A DNA stretch of 63,570 nucleotides, filler included, from a bacterium (lineage in GTDB: Bacteria; UBP15; UBA6099; JAJRTR01), in assembly GCA_024278215.1 (NCBI GenBank). It is 6 parts of 6 records of this genome, joined end to end, with 100 filler letters (N's around TTAATTAATTAA, not from the genome) between each part and the next. Parts side by side here need not be neighbours in the genome. Positions count along the whole stretch, not along the records: positions 1 to 24,815 come from JAJRTR010000046.1; 5 more parts are not named here. One strand, given 5' to 3'. This document shows positions 2,212 to 39,349 of this stretch, piece by piece. Position 1 is the first letter of the stretch. Every line of letters begins with the position of its first letter. Both the position numbers and the translations under genes were made by a program. The notes beneath the pieces are model-generated. The model was given only the letters and a program-made list of their open reading frames with translations, was not told the origin of the DNA and searched no databases.

Positions 2212-3805
2212 ATCCTACCACCTTTAAGTTCTTCCTTATCACTTTTTCCAGCTTTGCCGATTCCGTGAATTGTTCTTCAAGTTTCCCGGTGAGCCGCTTC
2301 ATCTTTTCCTCGAACGGTTCATCGTCGCTATCATCAATTTCTTACGCGCCGACGTATCGGCCAGGGGTGAGGATATGACTGTGTTTTCGGATGTCTTCTA
2401 TTGTCGCGCTCATGCAGAAACCGGGGATGTCTTCATACTCTCCGGCGTCCTTGTCACCGCGCCATGCGTGGTACGTGCCAGCGATCTTTGCGACATCTTC
2501 ATCCGTGAATTCACGATGAACCCTGTCGATCAGTTTGCCGAGCTTCCGGGCGTCAATGAACAGGGTTTCTCCGCGCCGGTCGCGGAAGCGCCCGTTTTTC
2601 TTGTCACGAGCTATAAACCATAGACATGCTGGAATTGGGGTCGAGTAAAACAACTGGCCGGGGAGTGAGACCATGCAGTCTACGAGGTCGGCTTCGATTA
2701 TGTTTTTCCTGATCTCACCTTCGCCGGACTGATTGGACGACATGCTGCCGTTGGCGAGTACGAAACCGGCAAGGCCGTTTGGGGCGAGATGATGTATGAA
2801 GTGTTGTACCCAGGCATAGTTGGCGTTTCCGGCAGGCGGGAGACCGTACTTCCAGCGGGCGTCGCCGCGGAGTCTATCGCCGCCCCAGTCGCTGTCATTG
2901 AACGGTGGATTGGCGAGTATATAGTCGGCCTTCAGGTCTTTGTGCAGGTCGTTGTGATACGTGTTCGCGTTTTCCGGACCAAGGTTGCTGTCGATGCCGC
3001 GAATGGCAAGATTCATTCGGGCAAGCCGCCACGTGGTGGGGTTCGACTCCTGGCCGTAGATGCTGATGTCGCCAACGTTACCGCCGTGAGCGGCGGCAAA
3101 CTTTTCGCTTTGCACGAACATACCGCCTGAACCGCAGCAGGGGTCGTACACACGGCCTTTGTACGGGGCAAGCATTTCGACCAGTACCTGGACCACACAG
3201 CGGGGAGTATAGAACTGGCCGCCCTTTTTGCCTTCGGCCCCGGCGAACTGTGACAGGAAGTACTCATACACCCGCCCGAGAATATCCCTGGAGCGGTTTT
3301 CCTTGTCTCCCAGGCCGATGGTGCCGATGAGATCGATTAGTTCTCCAAGCCGCTGCTTGTCGAGAGCGGGCCGCGCGTAATCCTTGGGCAGCACGCCTTT
3401 TAGTGTGGGGTTCTCCCGCTCGATGGCAACCATGGCGTCGTCGATGATCTTGCCGATGGCGGACTGCTTTGCGTTGGCCTGAAGGAACGGCCAGCGGGCC
3501 TCCTTCGGCACCCAGAATATGTTTTCGGCGACATACTCGTCCCGGTCCTCGATGACGTGGTAGCGAGCTGTTTCTTCCTTGACATACCAATCGCTGGACG
3601 AGTCGGCGGTCCAGAGTTCCAGTTGCTCTTTACGTTCCTCGAAAGCATCGGATATATACTTGAGGAATATCAGGCCAAGCACGACGTGCTTGTACTCTGC
3701 GGCGTCCATATTATTGCGCATCTTATCGGCAGCGGCCCACAGAGTAGCCTCGAATCCGAGGTTCGCCCCGGTGCCGTTCCCGGTTTTCTTATTCTTACGA
3801 GCCAT
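2198..3805 (-). pseudogene. hsdM: Type I RM methyltransferase subunit with an in-frame premature TAA at 2342-2344 (real mutation or sequencing error)
   Basis: Motifs [19 protein letters not shown]. After TPGRYVGA* the same frame continues EIDDSDDEPFEEKMKRLTGKLEEQFTESAKLEKVIRKNLKVVGYGKK* (stop 2198-2200), the usual HsdM C-terminal helix. Confidence 0.85.
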
Positions 3806-4262: not shown

Positions 4263-6704
4263 TCAGAAGCACCCGGTACATTCACCGCTGGCGTCGAGCT
4301 TCAGTACCCATACATCTGAATTTCCGGCCCCGTATGAACTGGTGACGCCTGCTACGATATAACCGCCGTCAGTGGTCTGCTGAATGGATTCCGCTTCTTC
4401 GTTGCTCGTACCACCAAGTGTGTTGGCCCATGTCTGCGAACCACTTGAATCGAGTTTCAATATCCAGACATCTTTATTCCCGGCCCCGTATGAACTTGTG
4501 ATACCCGCTACAACGTACCCGCCATCAGTGGTCTGCTGAACAGAATTCGCTTCATCATCGCTTGTACCACCATAGGTTTGAGCCCAAACCTGATTACCGC
4601 TTGAATCCAATTTCAGCACCCAGGCATCTTTCCCGCCTGCGCCTTCCGAGTTCGTGTGTCCGGCAGCTATATATCCTCCATCGTCCGTCTGTCGAATGGA
4701 GTTCACGGTATCATCGCCTGTCCCTCCGTATGTGTTGCTCCAAGCCAGGGTGCCGTCGGAATTCAGTTTTACCACCTTTAACTCCTCTTTGAACGAGTCG
4801 TATACCATTCCGGCAACTATGTATCCATAGTCTGTGGTTTGCTGTACCGAGAATGCGCCCTCGCCGGAACTTCCTCCGGAGGGGTTGTACCATGACCACA
4901 CCTGAGAACCACCGGAATCGAGTTTCGAAACCCAATCCCAATTGCCAGCACTGTATGTCTCGACAATCCCCGACACGATATATCCGCCATCGGATGTTTC
5001 ACTTATGGATGTCGCCATCTCACTGCCATATGTTCCTATCGTCTTGTCCCAGGTCTGATTGCCGACGGAATCGAGTTTCACTATCCAGTAGTCGTCACTG
5101 CCTGCGCCGTATGAGTTCGTGACGCCTGCGGTTATATATCCACCGTCCATTGTCTGTTGTATAGAAAAGGACTGTTCGAAGTTCGCGCCGCCAAGGGTCT
5201 GCGTCCATACCTGAGTGCCGGTCGCACTCAGCTTAATGATGTAGAAGTCGTAGTTTACAGGTTCATCAATCGGGTTGACATATCCGGATACGATATAACC
5301 TCCGTCCGTTGTCTGCTGTACCGAGAATGCCTTTTCATAGTCTGTACCTCCAAACGTTTTTGCCCATACGTCGGAGGATTCGGTCTGACATGTGGATGAA
5401 CAGCCGTCGCCATCGGCGGTGTTGCCGTCGTCGCACTGTTCGCTGTTGCTTGAGTCCACTGTCGAGTCGCCGCAATATGATGTTGCACCGGCGACTGATT
5501 GGCATGTGGAATCGCAAACGGTGCAGGATGTCTGTCCGTAATCGCACGTTTCGGTTGTCGTATTACCGTCATCGCAGTCTTCACCGTTTCCGGTGTCGGT
5601 CGTGCTATCACTACAGTAGGATGTGGAGCCTGCAACGGACTGACACGTTGAATCGCAAACGGAGCAGGATGTCTCTCCGTATGTGCAAGTCTCCGTCACG
5701 GTGTTGCCGTCATCGCAGTCCTCGCCGGTTTCCACGGTTCCGTTTCCGCACACGGTTCCCTGGGTGACGGTGACGGGAGTATCAACATCGTCGGTGATAC
5801 TGCCGTCGACGCGGCAGCCCGGCGTGAAGTCGCCGATACCGTACACGCATTCACCGATGTTGCCGGAAGAGATTTCATACCACAGGGCACCGCTGCTGTC
5901 GCATCTGTGTTCGAGGGTGGTGGCCGTGCCGCCCGATACAGTGCAAGTGACGGTGAACACGGTGTCGATTGTGCCTGTTGCCGGGGAAACTGATGCGGTT
6001 ATTGATATCGCACTGCTGGATGTCACAGATATTGTTACCGTATCCTGGCGGGTAGCGCCGTCATTGTCGGTCACGGTCAGCGTGGCGGTGTAGCTGTCGG
6101 CGGTGCTGTAGGTATGGCTTGGACTCTGCTCACTGCTCGTCGAGCCGTCGCCGAATGTCCACGAATAGGACGCGATTGTGCCGTCCGAGTCTGAACCGGA
6201 GCCTGTGAACTGGATAGTGAGCGGAGCAGTGCCGGACGTGACATCGGCTTGAGCGGAAGCGGTGGGCGACTGGTTCACGTCCGAATCGGAGCCGGGTGTT
6301 AACGCGCCGTCGGTGGAGCCTTCCGGTGTTACTGTTACGATGACGCTTGCAATCACCGTGACGCTGATCTGCATCGTCTGGTAGCCGCTTTTTGTGATCG
6401 ACACTACTTGAGCTCCGACTGTGACTCCGGACAGAATGTAGTACCCGTTCGAGTCCGTAGTCGTGGTCTTTCCATCACACTGAACTGTTGCTCCGGAAAG
6501 CGCTTGATAGCCGGATGGCGCGGCTCCGGCAGATCGTTTTCCAGTTACCCGTCCGGCTTCGGATGGCGCGTAGACGTATCCGGCGATACTGCCGGTGGAT
6601 TGTATCGCTACGCCACGGTCGCCACCGCCTCCTCCGCAGCCTGCCGAGTACAGCGCGGCTGTTACAATCAGGAGTACAACAATATGGAATCTTGAGTTTT
6701 TCAT
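4263..6704 (-). CDS. Multidomain surface lipoprotein: carboxypeptidase-regulatory-like domain, PKD, Myxococcus-type Cys-rich repeats, C-terminal beta-propeller repeats
   Basis: Lipobox LYSAG-C plus poly-Gly. PKD signature YSWTFGDG..SSEQSPSHTY. CGNG/CDDGN repeats. About 7 W-x-x-T-x-GG...DGGYIVAG repeats. Confidence 0.85.
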   Translation of the reverse strand: MKNSRFHIVVLLIVTAALYSAGCGGGGGDRGVAIQSTGSIAGYVYAPSEAGRVTGKRSAGAAPSGYQALSGATVQCDGKTTTTDSNGYYILSGVTVGAQVVSITKSGYQTMQISVTVIASVIVTVTPEGSTDGALTPGSDSDVNQSPTASAQADVTSGTAPLTIQFTGSGSDSDGTIASYSWTFGDGSTSSEQSPSHTYSTADSYTATLTVTDNDGATRQDTVTISVTSSSAISITASVSPATGTIDTVFTVTCTVSGGTATTLEHRCDSSGALWYEISSGNIGECVYGIGDFTPGCRVDGSITDDVDTPVTVTQGTVCGNGTVETGEDCDDGNTVTETCTYGETSCSVCDSTCQSVAGSTSYCSDSTTDTGNGEDCDDGNTTTETCDYGQTSCTVCDSTCQSVAGATSYCGDSTVDSSNSEQCDDGNTADGDGCSSTCQTESSDVWAKTFGGTDYEKAFSVQQTTDGGYIVSGYVNPIDEPVNYDFYIIKLSATGTQVWTQTLGGANFEQSFSIQQTMDGGYITAGVTNSYGAGSDDYWIVKLDSVGNQTWDKTIGTYGSEMATSISETSDGGYIVSGIVETYSAGNWDWVSKLDSGGSQVWSWYNPSGGSSGEGAFSVQQTTDYGYIVAGMVYDSFKEELKVVKLNSDGTLAWSNTYGGTGDDTVNSIRQTDDGGYIAAGHTNSEGAGGKDAWVLKLDSSGNQVWAQTYGGTSDDEANSVQQTTDGGYVVAGITSSYGAGNKDVWILKLDSSGSQTWANTLGGTSNEEAESIQQTTDGGYIVAGVTSSYGAGNSDVWVLKLDASGECTGCF

Positions 6705-6717
6705 TCTTCATACCTCC

Positions 6718-7563
6718 TCAGTATTGTTTTCGGAACGACAGACTGCCCATCGGGGAGCCCAGGTCGTCCACGTCGTATGCGCCGGCGTTTATATAGCCGA
6801 CGTCTCCCAACTTGAATGCGAGACCGACCGACAGCGCGTCGTCCGCGCAGGCCGTGCAGTCTATACCTGCACCGGGCAGGATTACGTTGTTGAGAATCAG
6901 CTTGTGGAAGTCGTACTCGGAATAGTCGGCGTAGATCACGAGTTCGGGGTTCACCGCGTACTGCAGCGATGCGAACATGCCGGTTTCCTCCGGCAGGTCG
7001 CCTGTAATCCAGTTCACACCAATATTGGCACGGGCGCGTCCATATTCGAAAGCGAGTGCCGCATAGGGTTGTGTGAAATCTACATCCGCGCCGCTGGACT
7101 GGCCGAAGTACATCATGCCGCCGAGTGCTATCTGGCCGTTCCAGGGCATGCGCACAATCCGGTTGTCAGGCACCCACTTCACGCGCACCACGTCAGCGGA
7201 ATGTGTAAAACCGGTGTCGCCGGTTGGTCCGTGAATGGTGACGTCGTATTCCTGTCGGGCGTAACCGATCTGGAATCCTTGAACGCCCACGAGCGCGTAC
7301 ATATTCGCGCCCTCTGCGTGGACGCGCAGCCCGTCCGCAGAAACCTTTCCAACGGTACCGAACAGCACGTAGTCCGTCCCGACAGTCACATCAGTGGGAA
7401 CCTGTGTATCGCTGGAAAGCATCTGCGTGGTGGTATCGAGCGGAGTGATAGGCTGGAACGCCTCATAGCTGTAAGGTTCAACGCTGTCCGACGCCGATAC
7501 CGAGATCGCAATCAGCAGCATTTGCATAAGTATGATAATGAACAAAGATTTTGCATGATGCAT
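6718..7563 (-). CDS. Secreted, probable outer-membrane beta-barrel protein
   Basis: Signal peptide (ISVSA), amphipathic strands, C-terminal aromatic residue (SLSFRKQY), RBS AAGGAGG. Co-oriented and 13 bp from the lipoprotein gene. Confidence 0.6.
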   Translation of the reverse strand: MHHAKSLFIIILMQMLLIAISVSASDSVEPYSYEAFQPITPLDTTTQMLSSDTQVPTDVTVGTDYVLFGTVGKVSADGLRVHAEGANMYALVGVQGFQIGYARQEYDVTIHGPTGDTGFTHSADVVRVKWVPDNRIVRMPWNGQIALGGMMYFGQSSGADVDFTQPYAALAFEYGRARANIGVNWITGDLPEETGMFASLQYAVNPELVIYADYSEYDFHKLILNNVILPGAGIDCTACADDALSVGLAFKLGDVGYINAGAYDVDDLGSPMGSLSFRKQY

Positions 7564-7625: not shown

Positions 7626-7760
7626 AAAAGGACGACCCCGGTTGCCTAACCAAGAGAGTACGCGAACGTAGCCCCAGGGTTGCCGAGGCCGCCCCAAAAA
7701 AGCAGACAGCTTTAAGGGCTACGTTCGTCACGCGCACATTGCGCGCTCTTGGTTAGGCAA
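7626..7760 (-). ncRNA. Putative structured leader RNA, copy 1 (unassigned family)
   Basis: 15-bp perfect P1 (7642-7656/7746-7760), 6-bp P2 (7731-7745), 12-bp perfect P3 (7663-7674/7716-7727) enclosing the core CTGCTTTTTTGGGGCGGCCTCGG. The 3' tail CCGGGGTCGTCC-TTTT is complementary to the core. Homologous to 37766-37915. Confidence 0.7.
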
Positions 7761-7765
7761 TTGGG

Positions 7766-7774
7766 ATTATATCA
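7766..7774 (-). promoter_or_regulatory. Extended -10 promoter (TGaTATAAT) directly upstream of leader copy 1
   Basis: TGATATAAT 5 nt before P1. The identical motif lies 6 nt before P1 in copy 2. Confidence 0.65.
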
Positions 7775-7866
7775 CAGCCTCGGCAATCCCCGGAAGGGGA
7801 AAAGCAAAATTGTCTGGTGGGGCGGCGCTCGGCATAACCTGATAAAGAGCTCTGCCAGACGGTGTG

Positions 7867-8631
7867 CTACCACCGAAAGCATTCGGAAACAAAGTCACAC
7901 GTGGGACATAAAAACCCGCGATTGGGGTAGAATCGCTTATCAGCAATAGCGTGTACAACCTGCTCGATAGTCCGGTACATGCGGTCCCATTGTTTTGGGC
8001 CTCGTGTTGTTTCTAAGACTTGTACACGAGGTTTTTTGTTTTTCACGATGATGTTATAGCGGCACGCGCCCTCGTCGCGCCCATCCTGTTGTGCAACCAT
8101 GTAGGTGTAAATGTCGGCCTGCAGCGCGGTGTCGACCTGGAACTGTGACCATGAGGAACGTGAAGTTTTCAATTCTGTGATCGTTCCGTCAGCGTCGAGC
8201 CTGTCGAGGTAGCCCAGCAGTTCTACTCCGGGTAGTGTTTCCCCGGTGACAGGGTTTGTCAGGGAAGATCGGAGTTCCAGTTCCACGGCCATGGGCGTCA
8301 CAATGTTTTCGCTGATTGAATCGACATACGCTTGCACTAACTTCGTTCCCTGCGCCTGCATGTCCTCGGGAGTGGTTCCGTTCGACCACTTCACAGGCAC
8401 TGTCGTTCGCGCCGTCCAGTCCTCCTCGAACGCCTTCTCCAGTTCTTCGGTCGTGAGTGGCTTGCCTGCCATGTGGCGACGGTAATAATGGGCAATGGTT
8501 CCGTGGACAGCCGAACCGAGTACCAGAGCAGGTGACACTTTCTCCGGCACGATGCCTTTTTCATACTTGAAGTAGTAGGACAGTGCGCATCTGAGATAGC
8601 CGTCAATTCTTGAATACGATAATGTCAACAT
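7867..8631 (-). CDS. PD-(D/E)XK RecB/AddB/Cas4-like exonuclease with probable 4-Cys Fe-S staple
   Basis: LSYSRI..YLRC, GSAVH, GYLDRLD...ELKTS, Q-x-x-x-Y, C-terminal CPTCDFVSEC. Start reassigned to ATG 8631 after AGGAGG. Confidence 0.85.
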   Translation of the reverse strand: MLTLSYSRIDGYLRCALSYYFKYEKGIVPEKVSPALVLGSAVHGTIAHYYRRHMAGKPLTTEELEKAFEEDWTARTTVPVKWSNGTTPEDMQAQGTKLVQAYVDSISENIVTPMAVELELRSSLTNPVTGETLPGVELLGYLDRLDADGTITELKTSRSSWSQFQVDTALQADIYTYMVAQQDGRDEGACRYNIIVKNKKPRVQVLETTRGPKQWDRMYRTIEQVVHAIADKRFYPNRGFLCPTCDFVSECFRW

Positions 8632-8689
8632 TTTGCTTCCCCTCCTTTCACAGGAGAGGACTTGATGCCGCCCCCTCCCGTGGATTCGT

Positions 8690-9595
8690 TTATGCTGCGA
8701 GTAGTGTTGAAGCATACCGTTCCATGTCCGACTGTTTCTGTGGCTGGAATGCCTGCGCCGCTCGCGTGATCGAATTCACTGCATCGAACAGGGTGCGGCC
8801 TCCGTGATACTCACGGTTCGCTGACCGGACAACCCTGTCGGCTGCCGTGTGTCCCATCGCGCTCGCGACGCCGGTGATGATCTCGGCTTTGTCGCCAGCA
8901 GTCAGGTACCTGCTTCTTGCCCGGTCCATTCGTTCAAGGTACTCATGAGAGCGATTTAATACCGTGTTTAGGTCGGGCAACTGAATTTCATTATTGCCCA
9001 GGTGCATCCAGCGGGATCTCATTATGTCTCCGACAGGTACCATCATGCCGTTGCTGCATATCCAGCGATATACGCCAGCGTGAACCTGCAAACTACCCTG
9101 ACCGTTTTCCGAATTCGTGAACTCAATCATCGGAGCCAGTTCGCCGACTTGCGCTGAGGTTGGAACAAGTTTCACTTTCGTGAGATCAAAACTGAGTGTG
9201 TAGTTTACGGGCATCAGGCCGATGCCGCTGTCCTGTGCCGATTGCAATATGTCGAGCAGCATGATGTTGTCGAGCTTTTTGTACCGGGGTGAGACAACTC
9301 CGTAGAGAGTGTTATCGTGGAACCGGTACAGACGCTCGGTCTCACCCTGCTCTCGACTCAGACGGTTGAAGATGATAGCCCTCTCGACAGGTGTCAACCT
9401 CTCGCGCCAAAAGTCGGTGGGAATCCCGCACTGTACGCAAAGCTGTTTTATTGCTGTGCCGGTCACCCTGACTGGTTTATTCCTGAAGTAGAACGAGCCG
9501 TTGCCATATATGATGTCACCGGTTGTTGCATGTTCGTCATGCTTCGCTGCATCGTTGGCTTTCAGTTGCTGTATGAGTCCTTCCATCTTGTTCAT
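8690..9595 (-). CDS. DUF932-family phage/plasmid protein
   Basis: GVVSPRYKKLDN, NSENGQGSL...YRWICSNGM, H-x-G, TLFDAVNSITRAAQ. RBS GGGAGG before ATG 9595. Confidence 0.75.
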   Translation of the reverse strand: MNKMEGLIQQLKANDAAKHDEHATTGDIIYGNGSFYFRNKPVRVTGTAIKQLCVQCGIPTDFWRERLTPVERAIIFNRLSREQGETERLYRFHDNTLYGVVSPRYKKLDNIMLLDILQSAQDSGIGLMPVNYTLSFDLTKVKLVPTSAQVGELAPMIEFTNSENGQGSLQVHAGVYRWICSNGMMVPVGDIMRSRWMHLGNNEIQLPDLNTVLNRSHEYLERMDRARSRYLTAGDKAEIITGVASAMGHTAADRVVRSANREYHGGRTLFDAVNSITRAAQAFQPQKQSDMERYASTLLAA

Positions 9596-9680
9596 AGTTA
9601 TTCCTCCCATAAAAGTTCAGGGCCGAGAGCATTGATTCGCTCCCGACCCCGTATTTCTGTGTTATTGCTGTGCTACTTGC

Positions 9681-9845
9681 TTACTCAGCCTCTGCTGGCT
9701 GCGGGTCTTTCTCCGCCTTGCGTTTCCTTCTCAGCGTCAACCAGCGTTCAGTTAAATCGTTGCCGATTGTGAATCCGATTGCGCCCAGGAACGAACAGAC
9801 GATGATGGCGATGCCGATGCAGACATACTTCATAATTGTGCTCAT
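9681..9845 (-). CDS. 54-aa single-pass membrane peptide (below the ORF-track cutoff)
   Basis: AAAGGAG RBS. Sequence MSTIMKYVCIGIAIIVCSFLGAIGFTIGNDLTERWLTLRRKRKAEKDPQPAEAE. Co-oriented with neighbouring genes. Confidence 0.65.
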   Translation of the reverse strand: MSTIMKYVCIGIAIIVCSFLGAIGFTIGNDLTERWLTLRRKRKAEKDPQPAEAE

Positions 9846-9922
9846 AACGAGTCTCCTTTTTTGATAGATAAACAGAGGGCCGAAAAGGCATAAGCGCCCC
9901 TCCGGCTCCTGCTGTCTGGGGG

Positions 9923-10384
9923 TCAGATAATAGCTCGCGAAAAGTCGAGAAGCTTTTCAATGACTCTTGATGCGTCGCGTCTCGATATGTTCGCTGTGGA
10001 ATCCATACTGCACTGATTTCTCAGCCAGGCACGCGCTTCTTCTTTGCTGTCAAAGTTCTCGTCGAACAGTTTGCGCAGCATATTGACTTGCTTTTCAGTG
10101 GCTTTGTAGCCGTTGCCGTTTCCATTACCACATGACGAGCCACCGTTACGCCCGTTGCCTGAATTGCGTGACTGTGAACTGGACGGGATTGCTGTCGATG
10201 GTACGGTGCCGGACGCGCCGCCGTTGATCTGGCGTTGCACAGCTTCTCGCGCCTGATGGAATAGGTAATCTGCGATCTGGTCAACGTTGTTGAATTCGCT
10301 TTCTGCTTCGATAGTGACCATGTAGGTTTCGTTCTCATAATCACCGGTTGACACTTTCTTCGTGAAGTTTGCCAATATCTTCAT
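9923..10384 (-). CDS. Hypothetical mobile-element protein with Gly/Asn linker and a C-terminal ATEKQ...DASRVIEKL helical module
   Basis: RBS GAGGAGG. The C-terminus resembles the small helical domains seen on phage/plasmid recombination proteins. Confidence 0.6.
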   Translation of the reverse strand: MKILANFTKKVSTGDYENETYMVTIEAESEFNNVDQIADYLFHQAREAVQRQINGGASGTVPSTAIPSSSQSRNSGNGRNGGSSCGNGNGNGYKATEKQVNMLRKLFDENFDSKEEARAWLRNQCSMDSTANISRRDASRVIEKLLDFSRAII

Positions 10385-10563
10385 CTCTGTACTCACCTCC
10401 TCGTTTCAAGATTATGAGCAGTTGCTAATGACGTGCTCAGGTCGCATCGGCTCGGTAGTAGTCAGATAAAACCGATCCGAATTCACAACGTTCTTATGGA
10501 AGTTTTTCGGGCTTTTAATTAGTGGGGTACGGACAGTTTCGTGTCATTGTCCAGGACAGACAT

Positions 10564-11556
10564 CTATGCTGTGACGTACGTGTGGTAGAGAATAGAATCC
10601 GGGTTATACTCAGCCTCCAGATACATTCGATCCACATCGTCCAGCCAGGCCTCGAATGCGTCCTGCTCCCGAAGTTCGGCCATGCGCTCACGGTAGCTTT
10701 TCACTGGTGTCTGAACCGGTGCTGCTTCCTCGGACAGGGTTTCACCGATGTACTCCTCGACATCTGCGCGGAGGAATTCCAGCATGGCTTCGTCGTGGTG
10801 TGACTGACGTGGCAGACGCGGTCGCGCATGTCTCCTGCTGCCTGCCGCCTGTCCAGTCCATCCACTACCGTAATCGAACGCCAGGCAAGCCTCCTGTTCC
10901 TTCCATGCGAAATCCACGCAGCCGGGAATATTTCGTTCCTCTCCATATACATCCTCTGTGGTGAGCTTCGGGCAAAAGCGATCCATCACCTCGTACACCA
11001 GCTTGCGCTCTGTCGTCATTGTCCACTCCGGGTCAATCCAGTCAGCACGTTCGTATCCCGTGATCGCCGGGCGGATACCGCTGCCACTGCATCGGAAGCA
11101 TGAGCCGGTATCGTGTTCGCCGTTCCTGCGGGTGAAGTGCGCCACGCCTGAGCCTCCGCATCTCCGGCAGGTGGGATACACCTGCACGAACTCCATGCGT
11201 GGTTTTCCATCCAGCATCGCGTCCCAGGCTTCCCACACCGGATCGCGCAGTTCCACCGACCAGTCCAAGCCTTCCTGCGTGGCGTCAATCGCCTCGAACA
11301 GCGATTCGGGCAACCTGGACTCCACCGAGCAGGCTACGTAAGGCTCCGGCACGTGGGGCGGGACGGATACGGCGTACCCCGTTTGCGCCACCAGCCACCG
11401 GTGGGTTTCACCGTCGTCGCCTACTGCTGCGAGTTCGGCGCGTACACTATCTTCGAATGCTGAATGCTTCCGGCAGCGGTCGTTGTTATCGACACCGCCT
11501 CCGATACTACCTTGGTCCATCGTGGATACAAACCACTTACACTGTCTACAATTCAT
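10564..11556 (-). CDS. Hypothetical protein with DnaJ-type CxxCxGxG zinc-finger pair and N-terminal CxxC
   Basis: CRRCGGSG and CFRCSGSG, CRQC at the N-terminus, RBS AAAGGAGG. Confidence 0.65.
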   Translation of the reverse strand: MNCRQCKWFVSTMDQGSIGGGVDNNDRCRKHSAFEDSVRAELAAVGDDGETHRWLVAQTGYAVSVPPHVPEPYVACSVESRLPESLFEAIDATQEGLDWSVELRDPVWEAWDAMLDGKPRMEFVQVYPTCRRCGGSGVAHFTRRNGEHDTGSCFRCSGSGIRPAITGYERADWIDPEWTMTTERKLVYEVMDRFCPKLTTEDVYGEERNIPGCVDFAWKEQEACLAFDYGSGWTGQAAGSRRHARPRLPRQSHHDEAMLEFLRADVEEYIGETLSEEAAPVQTPVKSYRERMAELREQDAFEAWLDDVDRMYLEAEYNPDSILYHTYVTA

Positions 11557-24815: not shown

Positions 24816-24915
24816 NNNNNNNNNNNNNNNNNNNNNNNNNNNNNNNNNNNNNNNNNNNNTTAATTAATTAANNNNNNNNNNNNNNNNNNNNNNNNNNNNN
24901 NNNNNNNNNNNNNNN
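24816..24915. other. Artificial contig linker
   Basis: N-run/TTAATTAATTAA/N-run, 100 bp. Confidence 0.98.
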
Positions 24916-34416: not shown

Positions 34417-34516
34417 NNNNNNNNNNNNNNNNNNNNNNNNNNNNNNNNNNNNNNNNNNNNTTAATTAATTAANNNNNNNNNNNNNNNNNNNNNNNNNNNN
34501 NNNNNNNNNNNNNNNN
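34417..34516. other. Artificial contig linker
   Basis: N/TTAATTAATTAA/N. Confidence 0.98.
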
Positions 34517-35270
34517 TTCTTTCCTCTTTGTTGTACACGATATGTCCGATATAGATTTCGTTCCGGAGCATGCGCGAGAACGAAGCAGCCCTCCATTTGT
34601 TGCCGCGAACGGTCGGGATGCTATTATCGTTCAGCCACTTACAGATCAATTTATATCCTTTCCCGTCGGCATACATCTCAAAGATGCGTCGCGCGAGCGG
34701 CGCGGTAACCGGGTCCGGTTCCCATTTCACGCGCCTGTGGCCGTTGTCTTTGACTTCGACCCTTTTGAAACCGAATGGCGGCGGTCCACCCGTGGAATAG
34801 CCGTTCCTTGCAAGATATTTCTTACTGCGCTCGACATCTTTCACATACTCGAGCCGCGAGAATTCGGCGACAGCGCGGAGAATCTCGATTATCAGTCTGC
34901 CCAGAGAATCCTCGGTATCGAACGGTTCTTTGTAATAGAAAATGGAGATGCCGCGCTCTCGCAGTTTTTCGGTGGCGATGTATGACTCCATCGTGTTGCG
35001 CCCGAACCGGGACACAGACCAGGTGAGCACCAGGTCGAACGGTGGCGGCTTGATCTGCGAATCTTTCAGCAGGCGGGAGAATTCCGGTCTCTTGAACGAG
35101 CCGCCGGATTTCACGTCTGCGTAAACCACGTAAACGGGTTTGCCGCGGCGCGCCGCCTCCTGCTTAAGAGTTTCGATCTGGGATTCGATGGAAAGCCCCA
35201 CATCCGCCTGCATCTGCGTACTGACACGTACATAGATGGCGCACGGCCTGATGATTTTCTCATTCTTCAT
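34517..35270 (-). CDS. Large serine recombinase (3' truncated by contig end)
   Basis: YVRVST catalytic Ser, SG...RPEF, SRFGRN, GGPPPFGF, recombinase domain W...MLRNEIYIG. Confidence 0.92.
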
Positions 35271-35991: not shown

Positions 35992-37629
35992 TTATTGTGT
36001 CGCAGCAGCATACCAATATTGAGTTACGCAGGTTGTGAAATCGCAGGATTGTCCCGATTGCGGTGTGTAAACCCTGCTGATGTTTCCCGCAAGGGAGTCT
36101 GTACTAACGGAGGGTGCGCTGCTGTTGAGTATATATCCCCTTACAGTTGTTTTCTCATCAACCTGGCATGAACCGATGGTCGTTTGCGTTGTCCCCTGTC
36201 CAACGAAAGCGTTTCCTGCAATAGTACCAGTGATAGTAGGAAGGCTCGCTCCGTTCAGAGTTCCGGTCAGGGTGCCTGAGTTACCGCTTTTTGCGAGCGT
36301 CACCGAAATGTCGTGGGTGTCCTGAGCAGAAATTGAATCGTTACATGAGCTGTATGCAACATACGCTCCGGTTGTTGAGGAGTAAGAACCGGCGATATTC
36401 GATGTAGCGCCAGATGGTATCAACGTGCCGCCTAAAACTGCGGCGTTTAAGTTGTCGATGTCTGAACCGGAAGAGTCTGTAAAATAAACCCTTCCCAATC
36501 CTCTGCAGGACCAATGAGTATATGTTGCTGAGTCTGAGCCCTCGGTAAATGAAACAACAAATTTCAAACAGTCGTTATAGGTTCCAGCATTAACTGCTTT
36601 CATCTCTTGGGTTACAGTCGTTGTAGCAGTGAGAGATGTATCTTGGCTCCCATTTGAGTGAGAAACGGTGGCAGTAATATTCCAGGATTCTCCACTAGTC
36701 ATATTCGCCTTACCGAACAACAGCGGTGGCGAGTAAGTTTGAAGATCATTTGTGTCATTGCTAAAGATACCATACAGATACAGATTCCCGCTGCTGTCAA
36801 AGGCGAAGTAATCAGTGCTGTCTCCATCATATCTTCCATATGTTGTCGTGCCGTTTATTGTTTTTGTCTCAATGAAACCCATCACAAAAGGATATTCACT
36901 CCTGCTGGTGTCGGGCAAACCTTCATCAAAGCTCCAAATGTCCCCAACGGCAATGGTCTCATAATCTGCAATATCAATCGAACTGCCCGACGAAGAGTAG
37001 CTTGATACATACATATCGAGGTTTGATGATATGGCGGAGTCGTTGTCCAGAGTGGCGACACAGCCGTTGACAGTCGTCTGGCCGGTCAAATCAACACTCG
37101 CCGCATCGTTTTCAACCTGTGTTTGAATTGAAATAATTTCTGTCACCGTAAAATTCGAAAGCGCCTGGCTGCTTGCAACTATTTCCGAAGTCACAAGCTC
37201 AGTTATTGGGTTGATGCTTACAGAAGTAGAGGTCACAATTGCCCGCATCTGGACATTATCTGAAGAATCTACGGCAGCAACAACCAGGTTGCTTGCGGTG
37301 CTTACGCCCACGGGCAATACCAGGCTGTATATGCCCGAACTGTTACTTTCACCGGATGCCAGAAAATCCCCGGACCTGTCGCCGTTATCATCAATAAGGA
37401 AAGCCTTAATGGTGACATTTGCCCTGAAAACAAAGTCGCTATGCACAGAATCGGCCGCTGAGCGCCCGGCTGATCTGCCAAGAGAAACTCCGGATGGTGC
37501 GCTGACAGTACCTGATATAGTTGTGCCTGTCGGCGTCGCTGTCCCCCCGCCACCGCCGCCGCCGCAACCGGCGAAAATAAGCGCGAGACAAATTACAGCA
37601 GTCGAAATACCAAGTGATTTTTTCATCAT
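35992..37629 (-). CDS. Ser/Thr-rich surface lipoprotein
   Basis: LIFAG-C-G8 lipobox; TISGTVSAP beta-sandwich; INPITEL; V-x-AGTY..C..GLG motif domain. Confidence 0.85.
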   Translation of the reverse strand: MMKKSLGISTAVICLALIFAGCGGGGGGGTATPTGTTISGTVSAPSGVSLGRSAGRSAADSVHSDFVFRANVTIKAFLIDDNGDRSGDFLASGESNSSGIYSLVLPVGVSTASNLVVAAVDSSDNVQMRAIVTSTSVSINPITELVTSEIVASSQALSNFTVTEIISIQTQVENDAASVDLTGQTTVNGCVATLDNDSAISSNLDMYVSSYSSSGSSIDIADYETIAVGDIWSFDEGLPDTSRSEYPFVMGFIETKTINGTTTYGRYDGDSTDYFAFDSSGNLYLYGIFSNDTNDLQTYSPPLLFGKANMTSGESWNITATVSHSNGSQDTSLTATTTVTQEMKAVNAGTYNDCLKFVVSFTEGSDSATYTHWSCRGLGRVYFTDSSGSDIDNLNAAVLGGTLIPSGATSNIAGSYSSTTGAYVAYSSCNDSISAQDTHDISVTLAKSGNSGTLTGTLNGASLPTITGTIAGNAFVGQGTTQTTIGSCQVDEKTTVRGYILNSSAPSVSTDSLAGNISRVYTPQSGQSCDFTTCVTQYWYAAATQ

Positions 37630-37765: not shown

Positions 37766-37915
37766 AAAGGGCAGACCCCGGTTGCGCAACAAACGGAATG
37801 TGCCGATCACTCAGCGACCGTTGTTCCGAGGCTGCCCCAAAAAGCAGCTCAGGGTCGCTAGTGAATAATAAGATATGGTGGCACATATCCATAAAAAAAC
37901 TCCGTTCGTTGCGCA
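37766..37915 (-). ncRNA. Putative structured leader RNA, copy 2
   Basis: 15-bp P1 (37783-37797/37901-37915), P2 (37872-37889), P3 (37807-37819/37853-37864), core CTGCTTTTTGGGGCAGCCTCGG, tail CCGGGGTCTGCCC-TTT. Confidence 0.7.
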
Positions 37916-37921
37916 GTCGAT

Positions 37922-37930
37922 ATTATATCA
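37922..37930 (-). promoter_or_regulatory. Extended -10 promoter (TGaTATAAT) of leader copy 2
   Basis: Same motif and position as in copy 1. TTGACG lies further upstream with a short 14-bp spacer. Confidence 0.65.
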
Positions 37931-38181
37931 TAGTAAATGGGCGTCAACACTGTTTTCAAAAAATTTTTCAAGGTATTTGTCGCTGAAGATTACCTCGTCG
38001 ATTTTTAAGGAATCCGAAGGCGTCGGATTGGTGTGGAATACCATTAAGACCGGACATAATTTCCTGTAGCGAAATTGGCATGATTGCAGAGGGTTTTTCC
38101 CCCATGTTTCCCCTTCCTTAAGACACTTCACTATTACATTTACAGACAGCTCCATCGAAGAAGTTTTATGAGCTGTATCTG

Positions 38182-39078: not shown

Positions 39079-39349
39079 GGGCTGTGCTAGGCGGGGTGTT
39101 AGCGGTACCCTGTACCCGCAATCCGCTACAGCGGGGTTGAATCCCCGGTTGAGGCGCTGTCCTGTTCGGTCTGCCCCCGGTAAGCGGTGTTGAGGACCGG
39201 GCCCTGCGCAAGGAGCGCCCGTGAATCCCGTCAGGGTCGGAAGGCAGCAGCGGTAAGCGGTCACGTTCTTGTGCCGCAGATCAGCATGGTCTGAGCTGGC
39301 TGCCGGGGTAAGCGCGGGTGGGAAGTTGTCGAGGCCGGGTGCACAGTCC
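39079..39349 (+). ncRNA. ffs: Signal recognition particle RNA, long Alu-containing (Bacillus-type) form
   Basis: 5' GGGCTGTGC pairs with 3' GCACAGTCC. Alu region GCTAGGCGGGG..TAGCGGT..AATCCGCT. Helix 8 TCAGG-GTC-GGAA-GGC-AGCAG. Directly upstream of dnaX. Confidence 0.93.

Follow-up and report, generated by a model that had tools for sequence, protein, structure and literature searches.

Results

Two copies of a folded RNA stand at the head of operons on separate contigs

The DNA analysed here, referred to as the window, is a stretch of 63,570 nucleotides made up of six contigs joined by runs of N (24816-24915, 34417-34516 and three more). On the first contig (1-24815) a nuclease gene is followed by a putative RNA element, designated copy 1, and by genes for two secreted or surface proteins, while a separate 4.1-kb contig (34517-38636) carries a second element, copy 2, ahead of an operon that comprises a lipoprotein gene and, as its last gene, a large serine recombinase. 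The neighbouring genes are the following:

7867-8715, minus strand: upstream PD-(D/E)XK nuclease gene, the last of a conserved four-gene module
6718-7563, minus strand: first gene behind copy 1, encoding a 281-aa secreted protein of no Pfam or PHROG family
4263-6704, minus strand: second gene behind copy 1, encoding an 813-aa lipoprotein with an AGCGGGG lipobox and PKD, Cys-rich and propeller repeats
35992-37629, minus strand: gene downstream of copy 2, encoding a 545-aa lipoprotein with an AGCGGGG lipobox
34517-35270, minus strand: large serine recombinase gene on the contig of copy 2, co-oriented and cut by the contig end

Each element consists of a promoter-like box, a closing stem (P1), an inner stem (P3) with a large apical loop, and a tail behind P1 that is complementary to a core within this loop; the pairing of core and tail is referred to as the loop-tail helix. 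Their parts are located as follows:

7766-7774, minus strand: extended -10 box of copy 1, TGATATAAT, 5 nt before P1
7626-7760, minus strand: copy 1 RNA, about 135 nt, taken from the start of P1 through the first U-run, scoring 128.5 bits with model R1
7746-7760, minus strand: 5' strand of copy 1 P1, 15 nt, pairing perfectly over 15 bp with 7656-7642
7642-7656, minus strand: 3' strand of copy 1 P1, pairing with 7760-7746
7731-7745, minus strand: P2 hairpin of copy 1 at the P1/P3 junction
7716-7727, minus strand: 5' strand of copy 1 P3, pairing with 7675-7663
7663-7675, minus strand: 3' strand of copy 1 P3, pairing with 7727-7716
7696-7701, minus strand: six U preceding the copy 1 core in the apical loop
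7683-7695, minus strand: copy 1 core GGGGCGGCCUCGG, lying in the apical loop and forming the 5' strand of the loop-tail helix
7630-7641, minus strand: copy 1 tail CCGGGGUCGUCC, which abuts P1 (0 nt) and supplies the 3' strand of the loop-tail helix
7621-7629, minus strand: U-rich run UUUUAUAUU behind the loop-tail helix of copy 1
37922-37930, minus strand: extended -10 box of copy 2, TGATATAAT, in the same layout as in copy 1
37766-37915, minus strand: copy 2 RNA, 150 nt, scoring 133.1 bits by covariance model
37901-37915, minus strand: 5' strand of copy 2 P1, pairing with 37783-37797
37826-37838, minus strand: copy 2 core GGGGCAGCCUCGG, assigned by motif and loop-tail pairing
37766-37781, minus strand: copy 2 tail CCGGGGUCUGCCC (37781-37769) plus UUU

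Both copies have a TGnTATAAT box 5 or 6 nt ahead of a 15-bp P1 and a P3 loop that carries CUGC, a U run and the core GGGGC(G/A)GCCUCGG, which is complementary to the 12-13 nt abutting P1, with U residues next. In DNA letters, the apical loop of copy 1 reads CTGC, six T and GGGGCGGCCTCGG, and its tail CCGGGGTCGTCC (7641-7630) abuts P1 and is followed by TTTT. Copies 1 and 2 hold the only two occurrences of the core motif in the window, where 0.02 would be expected, and the tail motif also occurs twice against 0.34 expected, a count reached in 2 of 100 shuffles. A structured RNA had been proposed at these sites from the sequence-only reading, and both copies proved to be as described, with predicted folds of -70.8 kcal/mol for copy 1 (z -6.3) and -67.2 kcal/mol for copy 2 (z -5.7) that were equalled by none of 200 shuffles in either case. 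The copies share 72% of their aligned columns, and the sequences of P1 and P3 differ yet still pair, which upholds the original view of conservation at the level of structure rather than a recent duplication. An 88-aa reading frame across copy 2 was considered as a coding leader peptide and was judged to be non-coding, because the length of the U-run varies between the copies and breaks the frame.

The RNA forms an uncatalogued family with a patchy distribution

Over the whole window, an SRP RNA and one tRNA alone passed the gathering thresholds of Rfam 15, and neither RNA copy was matched. With the limit relaxed to E-values up to 10, copy 1 matched suhB only, at 14.8 bits against a gathering threshold of 41, and copy 2 had three plus-strand matches near 18 bits (gathering thresholds 44-60). 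The C4 and isrK models matched neither copy even at this limit, nor did any known riboswitch or self-cleaving ribozyme model in Rfam, so that the initial failure to recognise a named family holds. Literature searches found no description of such a knotted leader RNA. The folded RNA encoded at both sites is real and has no catalogue entry; as a family it is new, but its kind, a pseudoknotted leader on mobile DNA, is familiar.

A first search used an exact pattern joining core and tail. Over the genome species set it returned seven stretches, of which L001, L004 and L005 are true members; L002, L003, L006 and L007 were discarded as chance matches since neither P1 nor a promoter box is present. 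The same pattern returned four stretches from metagenome contigs, namely L008, a near twin of copy 1, L009 and L010, in which the RNA and its flanks are identical to L001 over the stretch compared, and L011, which is likewise identical to L004. Viral contigs gave no match to the strict pattern, and none of the 41 viral loci found with a relaxed pattern passed model R2 at E-values up to 1. Covariance searches of related genomes yielded further homologs. A model built from six sequences matched in 7 of 100 genomes related to G001, and a refined model matched 6 of the 12 species genomes of the phylum of G001, one copy each. The seventh match of the first model, G081, is a small genome (0.8 Mb) from a different phylum; a third model matched 4 of 151 genomes drawn from that phylum, 1 of 139 genomes in the order of G081, namely G081 itself, and 2 of 16 genomes in the class of G205.

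In total 14 distinct members were obtained: nine long forms (133-172 nt) from large-genome uncultured bacteria, the two of the window included, and five short forms (91-116 nt) from small-genome bacteria of a different phylum. The spread of the RNA is patchy, which fits carriage on mobile DNA, the setting that had been suspected from the start.

The window also carries a large-type bacterial SRP RNA (39082-39346, plus strand, 204 bits) with a 656-aa ORF next to it, and a tRNA-Met at a contig end (34195-34268, plus strand). This SRP RNA is 76-92% identical to those of all 12 genomes of the phylum of G001, the near-full-length matches being 79-83% identical, and the CysS protein of the window genome shows only 36-43% identity to its counterparts there, which makes mixed evidence for placing the window genome in that phylum.

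P1, P3 and the loop-tail helix are maintained by compensatory changes

The three helices are all kept by compensatory changes. In an alignment of nine sequences, two-sided changes occur at 9 of the 17 pairs of P1, and 94.6% of the cells are paired compared to 33-48% when the partners are slid by 1-3 columns; P1 begins 0-2 nt past the modelled 5' end and has conserved pairs (UGC..AAC) beside its joint with the loop-tail helix. P3 occupies the same place in all 14 members, with 6-15 bp of unrelated sequence, while the P2 hairpin at the P1/P3 junction is found in some family members only.

The pairing of loop and tail, put forward on the basis of the two window copies, is real and covarying: it comprises 11-15 standard pairs in 14/14 members, with energies of -19.9 to -27.1 kcal/mol. 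These pairs were counted by script, the MAFFT alignment having set three tails one column off register. With shuffled tails the native energy was reached in 0-1 of 500 trials, and the most divergent cores favour their own tails by 4-14 kcal/mol. Compensatory changes are seen at otherwise invariant positions, where CUUGG faces CCAGG (L069, L077) and CUCUG faces CAGGG (L070); moreover, UUGCC faces GGCAA in L077. The spacer between P1 and tail measures 0-2 nt in every member, and in eight of the ten members examined no stretch within 600 nt on either side pairs better with the core than the tail does. One position of the loop-tail helix is a U-G pair in 13 of the 14 members, and the covariance model scores the reverse strand at 17-23 bits compared to 128-133 bits for the forward strand; both point to an RNA on the forward strand of the element and not to a DNA repeat.

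Conserved parts outside the helices are the U-run ahead of the core and ACAA-type linkers behind it. P1 and the loop-tail helix may stack on a continuous 3' strand with the 5' end at their joint, and in such a stacked geometry P3 would fold back alongside P1. The 3' strand of the short forms runs from P3 into P1 without a break, opposite a 3-nt bulge, and judged by geometry the three helices of the shortest members could coexist only with a sharp kink at this bulge. A small local hairpin that rivals the tail for the core shows nothing but one-sided changes in nine members, and only one of the five short forms has it; a two-state switch is therefore not established.

The RNA precedes mosaic lipoprotein genes or large serine recombinase genes

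Tabulating the downstream genes showed that the orientation of the RNA is not random, a co-oriented gene lying behind it at all 14 loci. At the nine long-form loci the co-oriented genes include a large lipoprotein with a GCGGGG lipobox. At the five short-form loci the start codon of a large serine recombinase is found 1-21 nt behind the RNA, which leaves no room for another promoter and makes the RNA the 5' leader of this gene. The initial link of the element to surface-lipoprotein cargo is thus borne out in every large-genome locus, but as a general reading it was too narrow, as the five short forms head serine recombinases.

A gene for a secreted protein of 279-283 aa comes first behind the RNA in copy 1, L008 and L025, and these genes are homologs; the labelling of the 281-aa product as a beta-barrel is a lead from a language model. 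The lipoproteins behind the RNA are mosaics (PKD, Cys-rich, RCC1 or propeller repeats, a papain-like domain and others) and not orthologs, which looks like an exchange of cargo behind a fixed leader. Copy 2 and L020 are about 90% alike in their RNA, compared to 37% identity over 186 residues in their downstream proteins, and the leader RNA is much better conserved than the cargo genes. The lipoproteins of L008, L020, L023 and L024 contain a papain-like protease domain, Cys-rich CGNG..CDDGN, RCC1-like and NHL-like repeats, and a sulfatase-modifying-factor-like end. Behind the lipoprotein genes of contig 1 (1-3805, minus strand) lie a type I restriction-modification set, with HsdM at 2342-3805 (minus strand) followed by a 172-aa and a 427-aa ORF, and an IS200/RAYT-like ORF, the 427-aa and RAYT-like ORFs having been named by eye; a RAYT-like gene is also found behind the lipoprotein of L020.

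The upstream context is variable, a four-gene module being present at five long-form loci and absent from the others. The module precedes the RNA in the window (7867-11556, minus strand), L022, L024, L025 and L008 with 30-65% protein identity, and consists of a Cys-rich protein of 268-330 aa, a second protein, about 157 aa long, that matches GemA and attachment proteins weakly, DUF932 and a Cas4-like PD-(D/E)XK nuclease. In viral contigs, 28 pattern matches to the upstream nuclease protein included no true relative, and none of six loci with relatives of the recombinase had the RNA upstream, whether searched by model or by eye. The short forms L026, L068 and L077 share a YTGCGATTTT motif and have T-arm-like hairpins at 60-110 nt ahead of the RNA, and these may be attachment-site remnants or terminators; a tRNA attachment site was rejected, since ARAGORN finds no tRNA adjoining the short forms.

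A promoter-like box and a terminator-like signal frame the RNA

A -10-like box lies 3-8 nt ahead of P1 in each of the 14 members, reads exactly TATAAT in nine of them and is often preceded by TG. Upstream operons, where present, end in a terminator-like hairpin before this box, most clearly in L022. A TTGAC(A/G)-like hexamer is situated only 13-14 nt ahead of TATAAT in copy 2 (window 37915-37985, minus strand) and L021, and L020 has TTGAAA at the same spacing, which is unusual among sigma-70 promoters; in L025 the spacing is the canonical 17 nt.

Behind the last G-C pair of the loop-tail helix at least three U follow in 13 of the 14 members, L024 having only UU. These U-runs are short or interrupted, with UUUCAGGUUU in four members. 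The two strands of the helix are 29-52 nt apart, and the intervening stretch pairs upstream. The helix accordingly has the G+C-rich stem and the U-run of a terminator and lacks the short loop of a simple hairpin; a consensus terminator scanner (loops of 3-8 nt) did not report it at either window copy. Besides the knot, no alternative terminator or anti-terminator hairpin was found in copies 1 and 2.

Upstream complements of the core are confined to two members

The element had been likened in the sequence-only reading to the P1 c4 and P4 CI antisense RNAs, in which a loop is complementary to both an upstream and a downstream site. The downstream site is present in all 14 members, but the upstream site did not hold up as a family trait: in a scan of ten members, the nine long forms and one short form, upstream core complements occur in copy 1 and L008 only, the other eight having none. 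In copy 1 they are situated as follows:

7777-7786, minus strand: shorter upstream core complement TTGCCGAGGC, also in L008
7818-7833, minus strand: stronger upstream core complement, -30.5 kcal/mol, about 60 nt upstream of the promoter box

The stronger complement (7833-7818), which was missed in the first reading of the sequence, lies inside a long-looped terminator-like hairpin just past the nuclease stop codon (7818-7860, minus strand); in L008 the 5' arm of this post-nuclease hairpin itself resembles the core. This hairpin may be what is left of a second element, or the core may truly pair with it.

Discussion

We tentatively favour, at somewhat less than an even chance, a reading of the RNA as a cis-acting pseudoknotted 5' leader of mobile elements that would most likely serve as an attenuator, the loop-tail helix and the U-run being the candidate terminator; such a leader would probably limit how much of the downstream genes is transcribed. 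In the model, a self-contained promoter and leader module would ride on mobile DNA, with transcription predicted to start 0-2 nt ahead of P1. The RNA (91-172 nt) would fold into P1, the inner P3 and the U-rich apical loop, of which a core of 12-14 nt would pair with the tail behind P1 to give a pseudoknot, and P1 and the loop-tail helix could stack end to end with the 5' end of the RNA at the joint. The transcript would run on into the genes for surface lipoproteins or large serine recombinases, the G+C-rich loop-tail helix and the U residues would act as a terminator-like signal that part of the transcripts pass to reach these genes, and the efficiency of knot formation would set the share of read-through, possibly under the influence of a factor that shifts this balance. 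The integrase and the surface cargo would thus be kept low or conditional.

Attenuation is favoured by the G+C-rich loop-tail helix with at least three U behind it in nearly all members. Against it stand the short or interrupted U-runs, down to UU in L024, and the kinked helix that the shortest members need for the three helices to coexist; the distance between the strands, with an intervening stretch that pairs upstream, argues against a canonical terminator hairpin, and we know of no proven pseudoknot terminator. Like the textbook attenuators that rely on intrinsic terminators, the RNA has a promoter-proximal G+C-rich helix of 11-15 bp followed by U residues ahead of genes. Unlike in intrinsic terminators, an apical loop 29-52 nt upstream supplies the 5' strand of the helix, a pseudoknot results because the RNA in between is paired to the 5' portion of the transcript, and the U-runs are short. 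The put RNAs of phage HK022 consist of two plain stem-loops without a pseudoknot and suppress termination. By analogy, the knotted leader may resemble them as a promoter-proximal structured RNA of a mobile element that acts in cis on its own transcription complex, but it is pseudoknotted and is proposed to cause termination.

A second explanation, which we regard as doubtful though credible, is that the knot buries the 5' end at the joint of P1 and the loop-tail helix and shields the mRNA from 5'-end-dependent decay, giving strong, host-independent expression; the U-run would then be a spacer or a ribosome landing site and not a terminator. The layout speaks for such protection, with P1 0-2 nt from the predicted start and the tail 0-2 nt from P1 in 14/14 members, as do the travel of the family on mobile DNA in two phyla and the conservation of the RNA of copy 2 and L020 (about 90%) compared to that of their proteins (37% over 186 residues). 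A plain 5' hairpin would suffice for this purpose, however, and protection leaves the conserved core, the U-rich and A/C-rich linkers and the U-run after the helix unexplained. In flavivirus xrRNA, a three-helix junction holds the 5' end inside while the P3 loop pairs just 3' of P1. In its modelled fold the knotted leader would likewise pair its P3 loop 3' of P1 and enclose the 5' end; it differs in being bacterial, 2-3 times larger and without a pseudoknot at the 5' end, and in lying at the very start of a transcript, whereas xrRNA lies inside the 3' UTR.

It is unlikely, in our estimate, that the RNA is a sensor, i.e. a riboswitch-like or protein-binding leader in which a ligand or protein stabilises or blocks the knot and so switches the integrase or surface genes. 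The compact pseudoknotted fold with its conserved unpaired U-run and ACAA-type linkers would suit a sensor, as would the conserved P1 pairs UGC..AAC next to the joint, and second-messenger riboswitches typically act on genes for surface adhesins. The genes behind the RNA, mosaic lipoproteins at nine loci and serine recombinases at five, nevertheless show no metabolic or transport theme, and to our knowledge recombinase genes are not riboswitch targets; the family has a covarying structured fold, as expected of a riboswitch, and lacks the coherent gene set of a single signal. Moreover, no alternative terminator or anti-terminator hairpin was found beyond the knot, and no Rfam riboswitch matches. 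In the preQ1-II, SAM-II and fluoride riboswitches, a hairpin loop pairs with a 3' tail to form a pseudoknot. The knotted leader shares with them the loop-to-3'-tail helix and the conserved linkers at the 3' edge of a 5' leader, and differs from them by the missing model match, a much longer closing stem, non-metabolic genes and no known ligand. A bolder form of the sensor reading, to which we likewise give a small chance, holds that the knot is a two-state sensor moved from host to host, in which a cellular signal or a factor of the element gates the loop-tail helix as terminator.

A processed antisense RNA that acts in trans appears improbable. The P1-P3 rod would in that case be excised, and its loop would pair with the tails of new transcripts and, at copy 1, also with the upstream sites, stopping transcripts. 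The CI RNA of the phage-plasmid P4 is made from the leader transcript of the mobile element itself and follows a seqA/seqB/seqC pairing logic (PMC4825925). Like this RNA and the c4 RNA of phage P1, the knotted leader is a structured RNA that stems from a leader transcript of the mobile element carrying it, and its loop can pair with a sequence a short way further down that transcript; the pairing of both phage RNAs is tied to premature termination, to which the proposed action of the knotted leader may be likened. The loop complementarity in 14/14 members, the two upstream complements of copy 1 and L008, the better one at -30.5 kcal/mol, and the mobile-DNA setting would agree with an antisense RNA, and a molecule of the shortest members may be unable to hold the full rod and the knot at once. 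On the other side, the upstream complements are absent in eight of the ten members examined, the C4 and isrK models give no match at E-values up to 10, and the downstream genes are lipoproteins and serine recombinases, neither replication nor anti-repressor genes. Moreover, the target is fused to the closing stem, 0-2 nt away, so that the pairing is probably intramolecular and a pseudoknot fits better than an antisense target. Of the attenuator, antisense RNA and riboswitch named as options at the outset, the attenuator is tentatively favoured here from the sequence.

We consider it very improbable that the RNA is a new self-cleaving ribozyme: small pseudoknotted RNAs beside prophage integrase genes are a known setting of hammerhead, twister, pistol and hatchet ribozymes, and the short forms (91-116 nt) do lie directly ahead of recombinase genes at 5/5 loci, but conservation is strongest within helices and not at junction nucleotides, no known model matches, and no candidate cleavage site was identified. 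A DNA-level element (recombinase attachment site, paired operators or miniature transposon) is hardly conceivable, for although P1 is a DNA inverted repeat with a nearly palindromic base in some members (GTTGnnCAAC) and the element adjoins recombinase genes at five loci, G-U pairs are kept on one strand only, as in the U-G pair of the loop-tail helix (13/14), the forward strand outscores the reverse one (128-133 compared to 17-23 bits), the promoter box and tail are conserved outside the repeat, the arms are 70-130 bp apart, and genomes hold one or two copies, the two in one genome being different. A miniature inverted-repeat transposable element was rejected in view of the single copy in each of six genomes of the phylum of G001 and the two in the window, which are 72% alike.

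The analysis adds a well-supported RNA family from never-cultured bacteria, with an unusual topology in which the top loop pairs with the nucleotides directly behind the closing stem and can enclose the 5' end. If the 5' end is protected, the family would be a bacterial counterpart of the nuclease-resistant viral RNAs. Should the loop-tail helix terminate transcription, as the favoured attenuator reading has it, a terminator can be built from a pseudoknot, which would provide a control part that is compact and does not depend on the host. Were the knot a two-state sensor, one portable RNA would license both the integrase and the surface cargo of serine-recombinase elements, and the family would stand as a new class of riboswitch-like RNAs and as the first terminator in nature made from a pseudoknot. 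The presence of one leader ahead of recombinases and mosaic lipoproteins in two phyla suggests a portable expression-control module of mobile DNA.
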